From assembly GCF_000737315.1 (NCBI RefSeq), contig NZ_JMCB01000003.1, forward strand, positions 217,394 to 281,393: a DNA stretch of 64,000 nt, given 5' to 3'. A program made the position numbers and the translations under genes. Below, piece after piece: positions 27,001 to 33,700 of this stretch. Position 1 is the stretch's first letter; the number at the start of each line of letters is the position of its first letter. The notes below the pieces were generated by a model. That model saw nothing but the letters and a program-made list of their open reading frames with translations. It was not told where the DNA came from and searched no databases. The stretch is from Hyalangium minutum (GTDB lineage: Bacteria; Myxococcota; Myxococcia; Myxococcales; Myxococcaceae).

Positions 27001-29857
27001 GCAGAACCAGCCGCCGACGGTGACGCTAACGTCCAAGAGCTATCTGGTGGCCGGACAGGGGGGGACCCCTGTGTACGCGAGTGCCTATGATGAGGCCCAC
27101 ATGCAGTCGCTCAAGGTGCGGGTGGGCGACACCCTGATCGCGCAGAGCACCTCCTCCTACTATGCCCAGAGTGGTCTCTCCTGGAGCGGTTCCTACACGC
27201 CCAGCTCTCCGGAGTCGTTCGTTCTCGAGGCGGTGGCGGAGGATGGGGCGGGCCTACAGACCGTCCTGCGCAAGCAGGTGCCTGTCTTGCCCGCGGGGTC
27301 GGGGCAGAGCTGTGAGAAGCCCGTCCCGATCGGCATGGACCTCACGCTGAGGCCGCCTCAGGTGCAGCTGCAGAGCACGTTCTACTCGCGGTGTGGGACC
27401 TTCTATACGGGCTCGTGGCACACCCTGCCGTTCGACGGGCCCGTCGAGGAGATCTCCTTGAGGGCCTATTCCGACTCTTGGTACTGGCCAACCCTCATCG
27501 TGAAGGACGGCTGTGACGCCTCGGCGGCGCAGTTCTGTCCATATTCCTCGTCGTCTTCCGATGTCTCCACGCGCGCCACCTCGCTCTCCTCCCAGGCGCG
27601 TGTCTTCCTCTCTCAGGTCACAGGGGACGTTTATGTCTCCTTCGCCCGGCTGGGCATGGGCGCCCGGTGCATCCCGGGCTCTACCTCCGTGGTCTGCTCC
27701 AACAGCGTCTGCCGTGAGCAGAGCAGTGGTGAGTACCGATGCGCTCCCGAGGCCTGCAGGGATGGCCTGGACAATGACGGCGATGGGCGCGTGGACTTCC
27801 CAGCGGAGCCGGGCTGCACGTCCGCGACGGACGACGACGAGACAGACCCCGTGCCGCTCCCCACCTGCGCCAACGGGGTGGACGAGGATGAGGATGGGGC
27901 CATGGACTGGCCGGCGGAGACGGACTGCCCCTCTGCCTCCAGCAACGGGGAGCACCCGACCTCCTGCCAGGTGACGCCGCTGACCCTGCTGGGCTCCCGC
28001 ATGCGGATCGACTTCTCTCAGGCCTCGAATCTGGACGATCTGGTGTGCAGCACCTCCGGCTCGGGGCCAGACCAGGTCGTGAGGGTGGAGGTGCCAGGCC
28101 AGGCCTCGCTCTCTGGATCGCTGATGGAGCCGTACGGGTACCCAAAGACGCTGGCGCTCCGAAAGAGCTGCACGGACGGAGGAGCGTTCCTCGCCTGTGC
28201 TCCGGCGGAGTGGCAATCGGTTTGGGATGATGGACGTTGGGTATCTCAGTCTGTGGCCATGACGAGCGCGGAGGTGGGGCCCGGCTCCTACCTGTTCGTG
28301 GCGGACTCCTCGCTGCCCACCGGGTACGGCGCACCCTTGTTCCAGGTCCAAGGGCAACTCGCGGCGGACCAGCCCTGTGATCCGGCGCAGCCCTGGTTCG
28401 CCTGTCAGCAGGGACAGCGCTGCCTACCCTCGGTGGACGGTTACCAGTGCCAGGACGCCGCATGCGCCAGCGCGCAGGACGAAGATAGCGATGGGTGGAG
28501 CGGCTATCCCCAGGATCCGGGCTGTACGTCGCCGGATGATCAGGACGAGTCGGACCCCGAGACTGCACCTGCCTGCTCCAACGGTGCGGACGACGACGGC
28601 GACGGGCGTACGGACTGGCCAGCCGATCCGGGCTGCAGCTCCGCCTCGGGGAACACCGAGTCGGGAGATGGCGAGCGGTGCGAGGCACCTGCGGAAGTGA
28701 CTGCATCCACCACGGTGGTGGACTTCTCGGAGGCGGCCTCGGACGAGACGCTGCTCTGTGATGCCCGGCCTGTCGGCGACAAGGTGTTGAGCGTCCGGAT
28801 GCCAGGGGCTGGCACCATGGTGCTCACTTCCAGCCCGGAGATCTCAGCGCTGGCGCTTCGTCCGGCCTGCGCGGAGGAGCATGCGGACGTGAGATGCCTC
28901 TCGACCTTGACGGCGCCCTTGTACACCAAGGTGCCGTTGGAGGCAGGGGCCTATTCGATCGTGCTCAAGGGGACAGGGACCGCGACGCTTCGAGTCTCGG
29001 GCTTCTTGAATCACGGCGCTGGCTGCGATCCCGCGATGCCTTGGTTCAAGTGCGTGGCTCCGGCGTCCTGTACCATGGGCCCCACGGGCGCCACCTGCGT
29101 CGCTCCGGTGTGCTCGAACGGGCTGGATGACGATGGCGATGGCAAAGTGGATTTCCCGTCGGATCCAGGGTGCAGCTCGATGTGGGATATGGATGAGTCG
29201 GATCCTCCGGCGACTCCCGCCTGCCGTGACGGTGTGGACAACGATGGAGACGGGCTCACGGACTGGCCCGTCGATCCAGGCTGCGAGATCCGGGACGATC
29301 TGGATGAGGCCGATCTCTCCACGCCTCCTCAATGCTCCAACGGTGTGGACGACGACGGTGACGGCCTGATCGACTACGGCTCCGATCCGGAGTGCTCCAG
29401 TGCGGGCTCGGACAGCGAGGGTCTCTTCCAGGGCGTGCTGGCACAGCACCTGTCCTCGCAGACGTCCGGCTATTTGCCCTTCACCGCCACCAGCCGGCTC
29501 CCGCTGATGACCTGCTTCGAGTCCAACCGGGAGCTCAAGAAGGTCTTCCAGTTCGTGGCGCCCAATACGGGGCGGTACATCATTCCTCCCAGCTGGCCCT
29601 CGGGCAGAGTGCGGTTCTCCGTCGACGTGGTCGGGCCCGACCGGGGACAGATCATCTGTGCCAACGACTCCGCGCAGCTGTCGCTAAGACAGGGGGACGA
29701 GATCATCGTCACTGTCGGAGGGGATGACACCTATGGTGGGAATGGCACCGGCGGGGTGATGCAGATCCACTTCATGTACTCTGAACCGCAGCAGATCGTC
29801 TCCCCATGGCTCCCACCCCCTGAGCTCGATTGGCAGTGGACGGGCGTCATCCCATGA
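2..29857 (+). CDS. Giant modular surface/adhesin-like protein, 5'-truncated by the window edge (more than 9,938 aa in window). It has tandem bacterial Ig-like domains, seven beta-propeller(LVIVD-like)+Ig+2xIPT/TIG supermodules, and a Cys/Asp-rich Ca-binding-like C-terminus.
   Basis: A single uninterrupted frame runs from position 2 to TGA at 29855-29857 and stays open upstream of the first in-frame GTG at 41. Repeated ~100-aa units have the pattern D.PP.V.L.P...DDVAV..VEF.VDG...PY...W, which is Ig/Big-like. Fourteen IPT/TIG-like motifs (G.GF.PGA.V.FGG.PA) occur in seven pairs. LVIVD-like repeats are present (LRVLDVRDP..., LAVVDLSRPAQP...). The C-terminus has CxNGxDDDGDGxxDxPxDPGC repeats. All antisense ORFs there are compositionally junk. 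Confidence 0.85.
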   Translation: MPGALLLEGLPHTVSLTSGDARSGTLSPQDFQLVRYYADGALLGTVRTPRVEMRNLEEDPTEPPEYVAVPLWELSYVPRAGTAGTVVALYAEAVDARGATARGATILVRIARDGPPLVTLRSPSGPRVQATAGRPVQLTGLVEDDTVTLGVELSLLVDGAQVSSTRLVGEGLGGTRAGSAPFSISWTPPVSSIGRLVRLQFMARDVGDHESRASLEASVVADAPPQISLQTPPPGSQVLAGTTQFLTASVVDDSAGPVEVTWRVNGVPVGASRSPPYRTSWSVPTSAAGSTLQLQATARDSTGNEAQASGELFVVSDTTRPSISLVVPRPLAEVPETQDLVVSVAGQDDATVKKVEVLLEGEVLATDDDPGPNGTQLGSFLTHTLVRSAQLMGRQQIRLGARAYDASGNVGSAPEVLVKVLPDAPPTVRFVLPAANTRATIGTPLELIAEADDDVAVSSVEFFADGNSSCRATLPPYRCTITVTGPARTLHLRAVASDAGGRSSSAEVAVQVSEDREPPLVAFRSPSEGSFTFAGRNLSVEVAASDDVGVRDVRLELDGQTVGTQSGGVVDGLYRLFRWQVPIPAGAAGHTLAFKAVATDTSGLTRERLLEVRARRDEAPAVSLTSPAPNSFYKEGEDVRLVVTVADDEGVIGLVGLSGGRRQGTLAQSGPLLDVSRPQALTVRAPSIFRGEPPTVGAEARDTAGQSGVATVMLNVARDLEPPSALMISPLPPATGHLRVNEGGAFSLRVEVEDDVRVVRVAAVVDGQELPVVNGREPLGPQNERFEEVRVQDPVMPGQIIVSRRYLGTFAGTASLAQYSVGLHTLAARAYDAGGNATTTPALSFEILEVQDLAPPRVTLTLEGGPDERTCVAGAPMKLRVSATDDVSIREASVTFEGQPVTIRNPPERSPRNWQEEIPFQFPPLGTGGRRTVTFLARVTDGAQHTGVVSRTCELTPDGPPQILVVSPTARAALTEEGTEPVQVDVSDDVGVRRGLRVLSTSAVAVPGIGSFEVTATAAHEGLGVPSATLIPGDGPGFSVEALEGRLLISPPGEGQGTGTTAPGRLRLNVEPSPAGHGALAQVRFRYVVKPGHEGSTALQSFRSAFPDGVGSVTLSAPAFSADLSFPSQDIEMEEVDIQLSKASANAEELAVTRLGLRGWGTPQLQLRAEAAGERVAVQRWNTGVAPSRPGQVKRIDEAVWLPRGQAPRDSQLTVLAEDVAGLVGRVAIPIVARTDTDPPTASIVSPGNGASVVEDTVFEVQVSAQDNARLDQLELWVDGQSRQVMRVGPGPSGSPQAHRFSLSLPLPASGYPAALSVVARDGAGNATASDTAYVRVIPDVAPSVTFQSLTSAVESFTRTELDSGYVVMLQGVPATLGMLLEDDAGLASMRVQFGDQVVKEESFTGAPLTAGRQVTFTPPVGRDGAPVVLLVSLTDSAGHTRQTRLLIESRRPRPPALALAAPTPGATIAEGSIQLLFDAVAVDDTGVDHVQLFINGQPALILTRGEPIAWNLDPQSGAVVVADPALRQAVASLPPEDQDLQRLRHYRGQVKLPPGFVALVPGRTDAALQLRTIAADKEGHETVLDQPLRIEADVATPLVEVLRPVLGRNVVEGTSVLVEVSARDNVLVDRVEILAGPSASELRVVHTAGGFPPTNAVPGSPFDVYAPLVQYAFTVPTLAQLGSTVPVPYFVAARARDISGNWTAPADFVIQPIEIIQDQPPGVSILSPADGTPAVANSTITVSVMAEDDVAVGNVRLEVDGTPLPVTLHAPPFSFHVPVPDRAGELRLRAVAVDSGGHQVGSQVVILPLRDDLAPTVAVAQPRPEARLTEGRDFALVVAAQDDVAIRSVEVLVEGGLAGPLRLVASNLPYSFRVPLPPGSAGRTLRIVARARDSAGHESVAPEVTALAVADTSRPTVAWLRPAAGSQALEGSVVELEVDARDDVAVNSLELRLNDQPLAIMPTPPFRMTYHVPAQGGGQALVFSAIARDPSGNQTVETRRLEIAEDEPPSVSVIAPTRLVVGNPALLRAQASDDVAVTEIGFHVGSDPAALSEVARRYQLPYEFRYAATEADVGKVLTIRGRAMDLAGHEAWSVPVQALVVPDTPPTVAVRKPLAGEAIFEGQRLRLEVEATDVEGPIKQVAFFVDGRKVHVATTPAGIPGSPNLFATSYSPPVGSGNRLLRITAVAVDSANQETESAPVVVGTVRDTVPPETQLVDPMVWELVTEAEPVEWTAAALDESAVVGVRFLVDGQQVGPPSTVPRPGPSNRPLYYGTWLPPSGAAGQTRTLTAEATDPSQNVGRAEPVTVELGMRPEPAVELVVEPYARRQAGMAADGEGLVIHGALLKDVPLPPPNDTVKRDEGRLALARLDLNGLAPLGTVKVTGSPVSQTLLGRLALVAMGPVFDPVGKKTIPAQLQVVDLSNTAVPRLRGVVDLPSDDVHQVVARDRLAFVANGTSGVAVLELGNPDAPQRAFTRPTVGPARGVAVTDQWLLVAAGSGGLRVLDVRDPYLRELGFVALPGEANRVEVVGSRAYVGCSNAQAPLAVVDLSRPAQPRLMSLLSHAPRRPDLLASEVTDVAVSGGVALVTTAITDQDAEPVKGILSASTVKADGAASTFVRANLPGARDVLFSQGRPVALLGDSAMGAFTLPRLAVTDVSPVDGTGQVPPTAQVTVTFSRLLQGASVTEQTVLLRAQDAVLGPVVPATVTVNETRILVAPRAPLPTNTEIFLTVLPTVTGEGGVTLGERFVSRFRTSPVDGLPPQVADVQPPAGPVDGGTRVRVWGLHFAPGARVLFSGQEATQVQVAADGRSLDAVTPPNLEGAVVVTVVNPNGLEGSLLGGFLYLQILDVSMVVPATGSLAGGNLVELSGSGFQRGATVRFDGVPATDVRVLSPGRISLRTPPGHFGTVDVRVDNPDGRYVVKPDAFLYSNLVVSRVLGRHIPDPQYDGPIRPAEKLPQGVPRAVVMQGGLAWLLSDGTAALQAHSPEELLQDSIQAAVTLVDVSDPDNAAVRSGVSIAPPYQPRALAVRGTTAYVAADAAELPYVDVVGEGGPSLLVVDASVLQAPRMVTAVPFEGTARAVAVADDLALVAAGAGGLAVFSVADPLRPVLTGSIQSMRVRGEVRAVNVVDVAASGRYALVRAGTNAGTFTLVLDLATPGIEVVGEASDLGPMALQGRRGLTLGNGQIRTLSFSPPTWPRNLVGMSSLVGGTPVTVAVGPHVGAAGTEVSRPGNSGSGKLEVSLSADPSRPRAVDAVDLYPAARFGGVAVERDVAVISISALLTKKGEVVADPTLALGSDGLAVVRMPFLMGMRSQPADGDTEVPPSTPLRLEFNREVAGASPQTVRLIRQDGSVNGVVEPAEIQTLGRTVLLLPAQPLAPSTTYRVVADQLTDALTRAEMAGPFYLEFSTASSSAAMPVSISGLTPREGPAAGGTLVTVTGTGFEPGATVRFGGVPATQVTVSEDGTQLTARTAANTAGAATLEVTNPSGSVARRLGAFLFTQPLSVLAAAPGRGPASGGTRVILSGTGFSSTGTVQVRFGGVPALRTRVLGLNRLEVYTPRGLRGTVDIQVTNPDGSQATLEDGFIFDQPGGASVALSDRPVDVVVIGDSALVLQRGGLSVVDLSGLYLKGPLKDTPIPPDLVDGLVDVDNDRKDDRLVSFLPIPDALSLAYPSTWGHRLFVGTGGWDSKLQQWTAGEVLEVAIADLAHPAISARTAAVEGPVFGLDVKDERLLAATGQKGLSSFDRSYAPFLVGQLPMQGAAQSVAGSAGMAVVGVGQRDATSFAVSAGALRIVSTEASPSLRGALPLNIQRARWKGDVAVVAAGDAGLVLVSAANPDQPQVLASVLVGGFAWDVRLQGNLAYVAAGTAGVAVVDLTDLLHPRVLYHVTGARGGTAKLVEMTAGGRLVSMRDRGTQGWSVDFGRPSELAVVSASVAPDEVVPLSLPSVTVTLSAGLLHTSAPEAFSFTANGAPVPGTLEAGTPELPVSTLVFRPSEPLPSGAELRLALGTSLRSLLGDALIAPFEVRFFAAGGTGERPQLLQVVPRVGPSEGGTEIELLGTGFVPGTTVRIGAAPALVLSLSSTRMTVRVPPGEPGLADVVVVHPSGVTARRSGGYFYSAPLFASASIPRFLNPKGGSTVRVTGRGFLPTWSSPLGSTRVLIRGLPARSVSVESTTQLVAVAGPGSFGDADVELVAADGLQRASSPSPVGYGLPFSGKVVGASVRPVALAGNPALPLLPFAAAGASVEGNTFPQPYTGPMTGGGLVPESFRMVAYDVTRVGRPELAGASVVDPPDHDVDYLIGSLPYLAQRELPLPEVELMPDSFDVALRGTQLLVANGASGLAVIDASGTTLEQWPLLGRGGIGSVLGQEYATRLLATPTGAWVFSNPLEDNLLPEEIPCKSPTDEHYPAAGSGGQLQLFDTRSPSDPVLLGSIGSGSAQEPYGATVAGGRLLVAMGNHAGVIYCTETPFPPPPWASLTTGRRTRFLGLDPSDDYRSEDAPIIMMKTPHGALELYDSAGVGAQRLARRPYPYSLTDVVVVRDVAIASAAEFGLIFFDVRPDNPQAPQELLRLPFDQSLSNTPGHPERLRLIGDLLFVAASSGSVYVLDVSDPRHPEFLSGGNTEFAYDVLPVGDRLMLASRQELTELSMPFLLPLSTTPERDALVPPSLSQLEVRFNRPLAPATVNDISVQLIGPSGPVPLELSVVAEHATLTYAVRAQLPEEGLEPGATYEVRIASTVADQRGGGMIRPFRTAFRTGAAGSHAPRIDAVQPSAVSMAGGQQVVIQGSGLSGVASVRIGGATASFTAAGDTELHVTVPPSTRPGPADVRIEDAGGPWSLLPHGVLYLSPLASAHASLVPDHGPVEGGTEVKVSFSGASPVAPGTRVFIGDREGVNVDVVSLSTLRFTTPRPDGPGLVPVKLERPGEVSETVGYFSYDLPTGTTVDLPGFPPRETSEVVLSGDLLFAGVPTAGYEGLELFNIRVPEHPVRLGGLRTEGAVRGLDARGALALLATDAFGLVAVDVQDTARPFTVGRGATAGLATGIRLEGNVAHVSVTQMDGGAGYVQTFDVSQPSLPLLSTTPLTEDALALDHAPGRFYALTSNVRTGQPDGLRLTVYTRQGQRLGGVVVDATPRSYAELVRSRLTVRGGRAYVTLGSRLYVFDMSDETAPQVLQSTELGAPARGLTWAGGSLLVSTTGSSTLVTVPPTDLLVVGTSPVNGALASPLTSIRVDMSLPVREDTVTAGTFEVVQVGSAGPVPVPGHREVVFATRGSSLVFTPEDPLEPGAQIEVKVEGVLGFDTRPLAHPASFAFTVAGEDALQPWVERLEPASGLFTDFTATTVRGAGFRQGVTVRIAGQNATVVSVQEDQLGIVVPPSLTSAGPASVEVIDPSGLSAVRLGGFLYREPLRLALLSPDRAPQQGGVAVELRGTGFMPGLVVRFGGTGSFQVDVPSMERAVAVAPPHAQGLVDVEAVLGSQSAVKARSFLYGTGAVSRLPTPPVRDVRVEGTVAYVALGGETEIVGLDAEGHLITLEQRRKTDSGGLMVADLSEPTVAREIRRVNVSAQGGVRRMARAGNTLYLAAGSAGVVAVDVSQPANASETLRLSVQGEAVDVVTAGSLIFVADGSGVRVFRTGETEQPMLVAQRALPGGASALALYGGLLLVSNASATDARLYVLDARRGDLAPLAQEAHLPLSAPARHIAVEGTRAFVSLGRAGQVAIVELADPTAPAPAGTLVLKDELHQGWTSAEQTLVAGDVVWVAGGGGKVQRFAALVGQQPQWLETASVLGDAKALARSGRYLMAGTLLLDVNGRPVEMPLADTRDAAGTLTGGLVSVALDHLELRGTVPVAGAVVQVGVVPEVLLSALPDMATAGAVRLEGTDGVEVRVARQGRADTEGGRLALIPQSPLAVGTDYVLRVGGTLADLAGRPLGTDVGVRFRTGPIASPEQPVITAMSPVTGLEAGGDTAVLTGEGFMPGCQVWVGDTLASGVTVSSDGGRITLIVPPGPAGAAAVRVRNPNGLEALQLGLYRYLVAPELTQVSPAQAPFNSRQRVVLTGKGFAATTQVTFGGRPALHPVMDSQGRISVEVPDDVTGVVEVAVATPMPGGALVARRPDGFTYTLKPLGGVGGNTEALAVAGRVLLAARAGRLVAFDLTRPGDLPEVANVPGVTSAGGLVVSGDEAWLAGQGEVVRYALEGCGAGLPVSCPLQVVERIPLVASGVASVAAGQGSAYVTVAGGSDVVLLGRVDGATRVVAQVNVGPGVVRGVAMAGPVLAVLVQGSQSSRLELRDVADGSLTLVGEVPGLYWTVNRLAAEGTRVAVASGAGVRLYETAEPAVPVELGRFEGQGSAYTVALSGPWALASGDFGLAWLDTTQGLKRRTSGSTYGWAGNVAVGAGVAVAASAYELRAFELPYPTVTGQEPSPGGALPREAAVSVTLADRLPPSVVQGTAMELVGPAGAISGTRTVQGSAVLFRPSAVLTPGERVQARVTLGATPYVGGTVLGPWTWSILPSAEAPSLRVDALVPDHGDVSGGYPVVLAGAGFDAQTQVWFGTRAATVVPPVSTDAIHVLAPASPVPGPVRVRVSPGVAGTPVDVPGGFVYLAPLAISRVTPPRVDLGGGAVTVEGTGFNRSLTARLGGLVAPVSDFTPTSFKLSVPAGPSGWLALEVAQAGTPPVTLAQAVLRADGVAPTVTAWEPLDTVGTGQVPLNSIFTVRFNEPIDPATATHVRLVRQGGTVPESGTHTVAPDGLSVTFTPAAALPSTTAFTLSAAGVADLFGNAIANTAAARKDFRSRDVVPPNVYVRLESSTEPLAPGTLLAAEVSWSFRVVASDDSGQVSLRQLWVDGAAVSVDWDGKATYRWPAIMSSRPSTLKVRAEDSAGNGTESEVTVQVVEDMPPTVAITQPSTPVVQVEQGVSLTVALAASDNHGVSAVELRLDGVPIKRASSLTGTNATLSHVLYLPTQGTYQLTALAMDDRGQLTSSESVSVQVLPDTTPPQLAWVLPMAGTKLIGGGRYPLQVSATDLNGVAEVSFRIDGQLVATRTAPPWSMDWDAPAVTSAGTRLLEARARDAQGNEAGASQTVTVAPPSTSRPTIVLDGFSTSYGYPEGTAVTVRARVTSEIPLQSVRLSLGAETVTLTQPPWQLTFVAPRVPPPSQLVRLRGTAVDLLGRESFPVEYDVTVQDDGRQPVLALDMNPQGPSLLGGSTLQVGGLDGGVLTGTVVRVSEVLQPAETDGGYTLPFEPEAAPVRVSARMDAWDGGMVTLERQGTLTAFANGATVSVAAADEPVLDLATSGPWEWVARDQSGGHTRLELRDAATQALTAERSLDGTAVAVAFERGRAVVALRTGGRGRVDMMSVPALETVGSFSVRRIPRALETTSFGLAIGTDEGLELWSSGGMLASRLPLGDVLGVSAEGDRLAVLTNSTLYEVDASVPHAPALVASVPVAGATGVVALADARRCVVGATARCFRVEGTALTLQGEARLPDTAIAADGPGPWLLAGTASGLSVVDARGAPSMAGYYPALAGRVAAGDGRIVAAAPGRSSLLKLRRSVGAPTVHLELPPSAAPGARVPVVASVEGLSDPRDGYTAELRVRGTAVQVLKGRLPQSVDLPRDGTAAQVALRVVDLAGHEALAQGTVALVDDGAGPALAALQARAEVPSGAFFSLAAVPADPARVASVEYSVDSTVLGRADAPALAWRLRAPTVSTDTAFTVSAVALDAQGRRGAPVQASVWVRAGTGAALPTVSLARVGTGSIQEGTEVRVRATLTPSVPVAEVRFKMDGEEQQRLMLPPYEAVLRMPVGTGSRGVTVEAVAVDDQGRESAAALLPLTVVDDLTPPVVALEVDPSGEVLTAGSRVRATAIASDGGALESWSVRALLANVELASGGGRLDFTVPASTPAGTLVEIVATARDVAGNVATSRVTKTVLAPVLPDGGVVVAGDFVGADRLTLRGDFVYATTPRGLAVGRVRWGETPTIEPVSFLATDVAPSSLAVQGPWAVLVLPGRGLSIVNIADPAQPRVRGTLAGTFTKALAGDGLYVQGNSLFELDLEVPSTPVLRNMAVSATAVDGTADGVVFNSYSYLMVRARLTSGLSGYLSLLWPVGVPQTARWNDGKLLVGTDRSLAVLVRSGDSLGVAQEVPLPAGVRAMAVADGRVWLACTDGKLRWVDVRNPTAAQVIAQEALPARALEVSGGLMLATTAQGIFVRRLPNLGAAGSALSTPVGGLTLDDAPRAVTSFRRGVLVAAGLAGVQRIVLDDPSHPSRVSQSVAGLALKQVERTGEQVFTLNGTTLSIHVEQWDGSLVRDGGASDRLAALGSVERFAVSPRRLWAVSGGTVSSMGLPSVDQKVSLLLGSATLDVAGDETRAVVALGRAGAAVVLVDGAGTLRLGAMIPEVHTDAVAVDGDLALLGGPSGLAVVDLSAASGPVRRASLPTAGAVRRVRLEGRLALVSEGSAGVELWNVSQPAAPVLLGKLSTPRAEDAVVAAGHIVVADSVAGVKVFSLPAAGVNPVVRVVPDASSVEAGSWLEVSARVSGVQVDTAELLVEGQVLSRMDERAAVGRYLVPKQAVVGRELAVQVRARTASGAETLSAPVFVRVSAPTNLPEIVLYPNSPNSGWSYYSASSISVSAVYGGALAPVSARVRWAGQDLGALTVMDTSIHGELRMPVVGADTTGTLEFVLVDAAGRIKTASVPSIRVLAPQDPLPQSVYGLPSRLYSAPYDNAFTAQAYCYTWCNVRVERNGVTIASTLSTSPYTGWRSLPVSLVLPGETTGTQQTLTIVAEDSAGRQVRQEQRYTVLRDDLVPSVSLYAPYSASEGATVSVSAYASFPPGHQIRSLRLLANGVEIASVVGPTLSGVPYTFPSVSVTSTVRFEAIATDHLGREGRAEQLAQVLPDAPPSASMYASPTPVQGYPIYACINAADDVRLTAVTFKAGEETLWSCTSGCSAYFSTSFSKCVQSASRYTGSEIVLSAELTDSVGHTVTETRPYAVAQNQPPTVTLTSKSYLVAGQGGTPVYASAYDEAHMQSLKVRVGDTLIAQSTSSYYAQSGLSWSGSYTPSSPESFVLEAVAEDGAGLQTVLRKQVPVLPAGSGQSCEKPVPIGMDLTLRPPQVQLQSTFYSRCGTFYTGSWHTLPFDGPVEEISLRAYSDSWYWPTLIVKDGCDASAAQFCPYSSSSSDVSTRATSLSSQARVFLSQVTGDVYVSFARLGMGARCIPGSTSVVCSNSVCREQSSGEYRCAPEACRDGLDNDGDGRVDFPAEPGCTSATDDDETDPVPLPTCANGVDEDEDGAMDWPAETDCPSASSNGEHPTSCQVTPLTLLGSRMRIDFSQASNLDDLVCSTSGSGPDQVVRVEVPGQASLSGSLMEPYGYPKTLALRKSCTDGGAFLACAPAEWQSVWDDGRWVSQSVAMTSAEVGPGSYLFVADSSLPTGYGAPLFQVQGQLAADQPCDPAQPWFACQQGQRCLPSVDGYQCQDAACASAQDEDSDGWSGYPQDPGCTSPDDQDESDPETAPACSNGADDDGDGRTDWPADPGCSSASGNTESGDGERCEAPAEVTASTTVVDFSEAASDETLLCDARPVGDKVLSVRMPGAGTMVLTSSPEISALALRPACAEEHADVRCLSTLTAPLYTKVPLEAGAYSIVLKGTGTATLRVSGFLNHGAGCDPAMPWFKCVAPASCTMGPTGATCVAPVCSNGLDDDGDGKVDFPSDPGCSSMWDMDESDPPATPACRDGVDNDGDGLTDWPVDPGCEIRDDLDEADLSTPPQCSNGVDDDGDGLIDYGSDPECSSAGSDSEGLFQGVLAQHLSSQTSGYLPFTATSRLPLMTCFESNRELKKVFQFVAPNTGRYIIPPSWPSGRVRFSVDVVGPDRGQIICANDSAQLSLRQGDEIIVTVGGDDTYGGNGTGGVMQIHFMYSEPQQIVSPWLPPPELDWQWTGVIP

Positions 29858-30723
29858 GGCCCTCAAGCGGAATAGGCAGCTGGCTCGTGTTGGCCCTCGC
29901 GGTGCTGTCCGGGTGCGATGACTCGCGAACGGTGGCGAAGGTGGGGCGCACGGGCCTGACGGTGGAGGACGTGACGCAGCTGCGCGCCGCGCAGAGCCCG
30001 AGCGTCCGCGCCGCGCCGGAGCAGACGCTGGAGGTGCTGGTGGATCGCGCCCTGCTGGCCGAGGAGGCCCGGCGCCAGAAACTGCACGAGCAGCCCACGG
30101 TGAAGGCCCAGCTCGCGGCCGCCGAGCGGGAGCTCCTGGCGCATGCGGTGCTGGAGCGGGCGGTGGCTCCCAGCGTGACGGACGAGGCGCTGCGCGCGCG
30201 CTACGAGGCCGCGCGCTCCCGGCTGGAGCGCCGCGAGGTGCACGTGGCCCAGATCTTCGCGCGGATGCCCGAGGGCTCTGATGAGAAGACTCGGCGCCAG
30301 GCGCAGGTGCGCATCAACCAAGCCTATGCCCGGCTCGCGGGCGGAGAGCCTTTCGAGACCGTGGCGCGCGAGCTGTCCGAGGACTTGGTGAGCGCGCCCC
30401 AAGGAGGAGAGCTCGGCGTGGTTCGGGAGGGAGGAGTGGATCCAGCGTTCTTCGCCCAGGCCGTGGCGCTGGCCGCAGGCGCTTGGTCCAAGCCGTTCAT
30501 CACGCCCTTCGGCTGGCACGTGGTGAAGGCGCTTGAGGCGTCGAAGACGGTGGTGCCCTCCTTTGATGAGGCGAGAGGTGTGCTGGAGTCCGAGGCGCGC
30601 CAGGAGGCCCAGGCGAAGCTGATGGAGCGGCTGCGTCAGGAGATCTCGGTCCGTCGCTACCCGGAGCGGCTCAAGCTGGCAGAGGAGAAGAGCAAGCCCC
30701 AGGGCGAGGGGGAGGCGAGATGA
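29854..30723 (+). CDS. Peptidyl-prolyl cis-trans isomerase, parvulin (PpiC) type. It is a PrsA/SurA-like foldase lipoprotein.
   Basis: The ATG at 29854 overlaps the TGA of the giant gene (ATGA). The N-terminus MRPSSGIGSWLVLALAVLSGCDD is a signal peptide with an LSGC lipobox. The C-terminal parvulin signature is PFITPFGWHVVKALE. A SurA-like N-terminal chaperone region rich in A/E/R helices is present. Confidence 0.85.
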   Translation: MRPSSGIGSWLVLALAVLSGCDDSRTVAKVGRTGLTVEDVTQLRAAQSPSVRAAPEQTLEVLVDRALLAEEARRQKLHEQPTVKAQLAAAERELLAHAVLERAVAPSVTDEALRARYEAARSRLERREVHVAQIFARMPEGSDEKTRRQAQVRINQAYARLAGGEPFETVARELSEDLVSAPQGGELGVVREGGVDPAFFAQAVALAAGAWSKPFITPFGWHVVKALEASKTVVPSFDEARGVLESEARQEAQAKLMERLRQEISVRRYPERLKLAEEKSKPQGEGEAR

Positions 30724-33700
30724 TCCGCCGCGCTCCGCGATGGCTGTGGCTCGTGCTGGGGCTGGTGACACTGGCCACGGCGTGCGACCGGCGCTCCAGC
30801 GAGGAGCCCGCGTCCGCCGCGCCGCCCGCGCAGGCTGCTCAACAGGCACAGGCGCTGTCCGGAAGCACGTGCGACAGCGTGGCTCCCACCGGCATGGCGC
30901 CGGGGTGGAAGGTGGCGCCGATCCAGGCTGCGGGCCAGAACGTCGCGAGCACGATCTTCCCGGCGTCCGTCGGTGAGCGGGCGATCCTGATCCTGCAGGA
31001 GTCGGCGGAGGCGCTGAATCAGGAGTTCAAGACGGAGGCCTCCCTCAACGGTGTGGACTGGGTGGCCATCTCCCGGCAGAGGCCGCTGGCGGCGCGGGTG
31101 GTGCAGCTGAGTGCCTCGAACCGGCTGGAGCTGGAGACGAACGGAGGCGTGGCACGGACGTCCGTGGCGGCGCTGTCGCCGCTGCCGTGCGCGGCGGTGG
31201 AGGCACGCGTGACGCACGCGGGAGGCTCGGCCGCCACCGTGGAGACGCGCACCTTCACATGGCCCATGGGAGCAGGCCCGGCCCTGCTGGTGGTGGAGTC
31301 GGGCAGTGCGTCGCAGGTGACGGGGCGGGTGGTGCTGGGCAGCCTGACGGTGCAGGTGCCGGCCGCAGGCCAGCTCCCCGTGGTGGAGGTGGTGTCGCCG
31401 CAGGCGAGCAACACGCTGCGAGTCGAGGTGGGAGGCAGCGCGGGCGCGTGGGTCCGGGCAGTGGTGGTGGAGCCGGACATGTTGCCGCCCATCGTGAGCA
31501 TGGGGCAGCCCGCGGAGGGCGCGCAGCTGAACGCCTCGCCGGTGGAGGTCCAGGGCACCGCGGGAGCCGGGGCGGTGGCCGTGAAGGTGGGGGCGGTGGA
31601 CGCGGTGCTGTCGCAAGGCCAGTACACGGCGCAGGTGCCGCTGGTGGAGGGGCCCAACGCGCTGGTGGCCGAGGTGAGAGACCAGTGCGGCAACGTGGCG
31701 CGAGTGTGCCGGCCGGTGGTGCTGACGACGGCGCCGCCCACCGTTGTTATCGAGGGAGTTACTGACGGCCAGGTCTCGCGCGAGCCACTGCACCCCACGT
31801 GGACGGTGACGAGCAGCGGCCCGGTCACGGTGGAGGCGACGCTGGATGGCGCGCCCTTCGTCGGCGGCACGGCTGTAACGGCCGAGGGCTCGCACGAGCT
31901 GCGGGTCATGGTGCGGGACGCGGCGGGCCGGGAGGCGCAGGCGCAGGTGGGCTTCGCGATCGACACCACACCGCCGCGACTCACGCTGACAGGAGTGGAA
32001 GAGGGGGAGCGGCGCAATACTCCGGCGGTGCTCGGCTTCACGGTGGAGGAGGAGCACCCGGGCTCGGTGGAGGCCACCCTGGATGGGGCTCCCATGGCCT
32101 CGGGGGACACGGTCTCGGCGGAGGGCGCGCATGTGTGGACGGTGGCGGCCACGGACGCGGCGGGCAACCGGTCCGAGGTGCAGCGCCACTTCGTGGTGGA
32201 TGTGACGGCTCCCACGCTGGAGGTGCTCTCACCCGCGCCGGGCAGCTTCACCCAGGCGGGCTCCGTCGAGGTGGTGGTGGCGGCGGCGGATGACGGGCCG
32301 GTGGCGGGCGTGTGGCTGGGGAACGCGGAGCTGACGCTCGGCACGGACGGGAAGTACCGGAGCCTGGTGGTGTTGGAGGAGGGCAGCAACCTGCTGGTGC
32401 TGGTGGCTCGGGATGCGGCGGGCAACAGCGCGCAGAGCTCGCTGGCCGTGACGCGGGACTCCACGCCGCCCCAGCTCACCCTCACCACCCCGGCCGAGGG
32501 CGCGAAGGTGGCGGGGGACTCGGTGCAGGTGGAGGGACAGGCGCAGGACACCACGCCGCTCACGGTGCGCGTGGCGGGGATGACCGCGGCGGTCGCGGCG
32601 GATGGTCACTTCCAGCTCTCGGTGGCCGTGGCGCAGGGCCCTGTCTCCCTGGAGGTGGTGGCCACGGATGCGGCGGGGAACACCGCGCGTCTGGTGCGCG
32701 GCATCCGCGTCAACACCACGCCCCCGAGGTTGGATCTGACGGCACCGGCCTCGGGCACGGTCACCGAGGAGTCCTCCATCGAGGTGTCCGGCTTCGCGAG
32801 GGCGGCGGATCGCACGGACACGGTGCGGGTAGAGGTGGCGGGAACCGAGCACGGTGTGAGGGCGGATGGCAGCTTCTCGGTGCAGGTGCCGCTGGAGGTG
32901 GGCCTGAACACCGTGTCCGTCACGGCGGTGGATGGCTATGGCCTGCGCACCCCGCGCACCGTGCGGGTGGAGCGCCAGGGGCCTCAGGGGCCCGGTCCTG
33001 GAGATGGAGGCTCGGGAGACGGTTCGGGAGGCGGCACGGACGGAGGCTCGGGGGAAGACACCCCGGATGCAGGCAGCGGAGCGCCGGATGCGGGCTCGCC
33101 CGGTCCCGTGCCGGATGGCGGCATCCCGAGCGAGCCTCCGGTGCTGGTGCTGGCCTCGCCCCAGGAGAACAGCCTCTGGGGTGTGGAGCGGGTGTCGGTG
33201 CTGGGCCGTGTGGAGGGCGGAGACCTGCCGCTGCAGGTGACGGTGGATGGACTGCCAGCCGCGGTGACGGGGCGCCAGTTCTCCGCATCGGTGGCGCTGC
33301 CTGAAGGCTCCTCGATGCTGCACGTGCGCGCCGTGGACGCGCTGGGCCGGATCGCCGAGGTGCGGCGGCAGGTGAGGGTGGATCAGACACCGCCCTTCTT
33401 GGAAGTGACGCGGCCGGAGCAGCCGTCGACGACCGTGAGCGAATCCCCATACCTGGTGGAGGGCCTCGCGGGAGACGCGTACCTCGCGGGCGTCACGGTG
33501 AACGGGGCGCCGGTGATGGTGCTGGCCGGGCACTTCTCGTCCTCGGTGGCCCTGGTCGCGGGAGACAACACCGTGGAGGTGGAGGCGGTGGATCTCGCGG
33601 GTAACCGCTCGCGCGCCGTCCGGACCTTGCGGGTGGAAGCGCTGCCGCCTCAGCTGACCGTGCTGGAGCCGGTCGATGGCTCGGAGGCCACCGAGCCGGT

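Follow-up and report, generated by a model that had tools for sequence, protein, structure and literature searches.

In the soil myxobacterium Hyalangium minutum, a gene for a giant protein, a PPIase gene and an Rhs gene are best read as an envelope operon. Their products are, respectively, a secreted protein of roughly 10,000 residues, a small folding helper anchored to the membrane, and a predicted encapsulated toxin. Sequence comparison indicates that the pairing of helper and toxin is kept across myxobacteria.

Gene junctions

In the window, the 64,000-nucleotide stretch that was analysed, the three genes join one another through the following features:

29854, PPIase start codon (ATG)
29855-29857, giant ORF stop codon (TGA)
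30708-30715, Shine-Dalgarno sequence GGGGGAGG, separated from the Rhs ATG by 4 nt
30720, Rhs start codon (ATG)
30721-30723, PPIase stop codon (TGA)

The stop/start overlaps and the Shine-Dalgarno sequence given in a preliminary description were thus found in place, with ATGA at 29854-29857 (cATGAgg) between giant gene and PPIase and at 30720-30723 (gATGAtc) between PPIase and Rhs. All three frames have a coding-type GC3 of 0.86-0.88. Scans of both junctions returned neither terminator-like sites on the + strand nor sigma-70-like sites, although in a myxobacterium such a scan carries little weight. The overlaps had been taken as a signature of translational coupling. By itself, an ATGA overlap is a common feature of operons; because they are conserved among relatives, however, both overlaps stand above chance. 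At junction 1, ATGA is found in the window and in loci L001, L002, L005 and L017. At junction 2, the overlap is 4 nt in the window, L001, L002, L005, L011, L012, L015 and L019, and 1 nt (TGATG) in L004 and L017, while gaps of 7 nt and 115 nt occur in L018 and L003.

Gene products and conservation of the locus

Pfam agrees with the domains proposed earlier: Ig/TIG/LVIVD in the giant protein, a lipoprotein parvulin of 289 aa (counted from ATG 29854) for the PPIase, and a 4,682 aa lipoprotein with PT-HINT and a MafB19-type deaminase for Rhs. The giant ORF has at least 9,951 codons. Since its frame is open from base 2 and its 5' part is cut by the left window edge, its start lies outside the window, and the length of about 44.7 kb given for the three overlapping genes is a lower bound. 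Its homologues in Hyalangium and Cystobacter MAGs start approximately 415-450 codons further upstream, and in relatives the protein begins with an ordinary Sec signal peptide. No immunity gene was found within the window; the toxin tip is variable among relatives, and its GC is anomalously low.

Twelve orthologous loci besides the window were compared (PPIase identity 47-93%). Of these, 11 reach far enough to show what comes after the PPIase, and each has an Rhs or Rhs-position gene there, usually with a 4-nt or 1-nt overlap; none of 77 loci of more distant parvulins has a giant or Rhs neighbour. The proposed three-gene order holds less well upstream: the giant gene is present upstream in 7 loci, missing from 3 Myxococcus-type loci, and in 1 further locus was counted neither way. 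Moreover, relatives carry two additional parvulin lipoprotein genes upstream, so the conserved locus is larger than the three-gene block first described.

We propose that the PPIase, which we liken to PEB4/PrsA, is a dedicated chaperone serving Rhs, itself probably a T6SS-independent polymorphic toxin. The giant protein would be a co-client or partner, frequent yet dispensable. A tripartite delivery apparatus of giant protein, PPIase and Rhs is possible, though unsupported. The PPIase-Rhs pairing offers a testable lead to the way in which myxobacteria produce giant toxins and export them independently of a type VI secretion system.

The PPIase start codon

The NCBI record gives a PPIase of 278 aa, 11 codons shorter than our ORF. 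We consider ATG 29854 the better start, as 15 orthologues align from this codon onwards, across a conserved signal peptide and a lipobox whose Cys21 is invariant. The shorter NCBI start would abolish the overlap between giant gene and PPIase.

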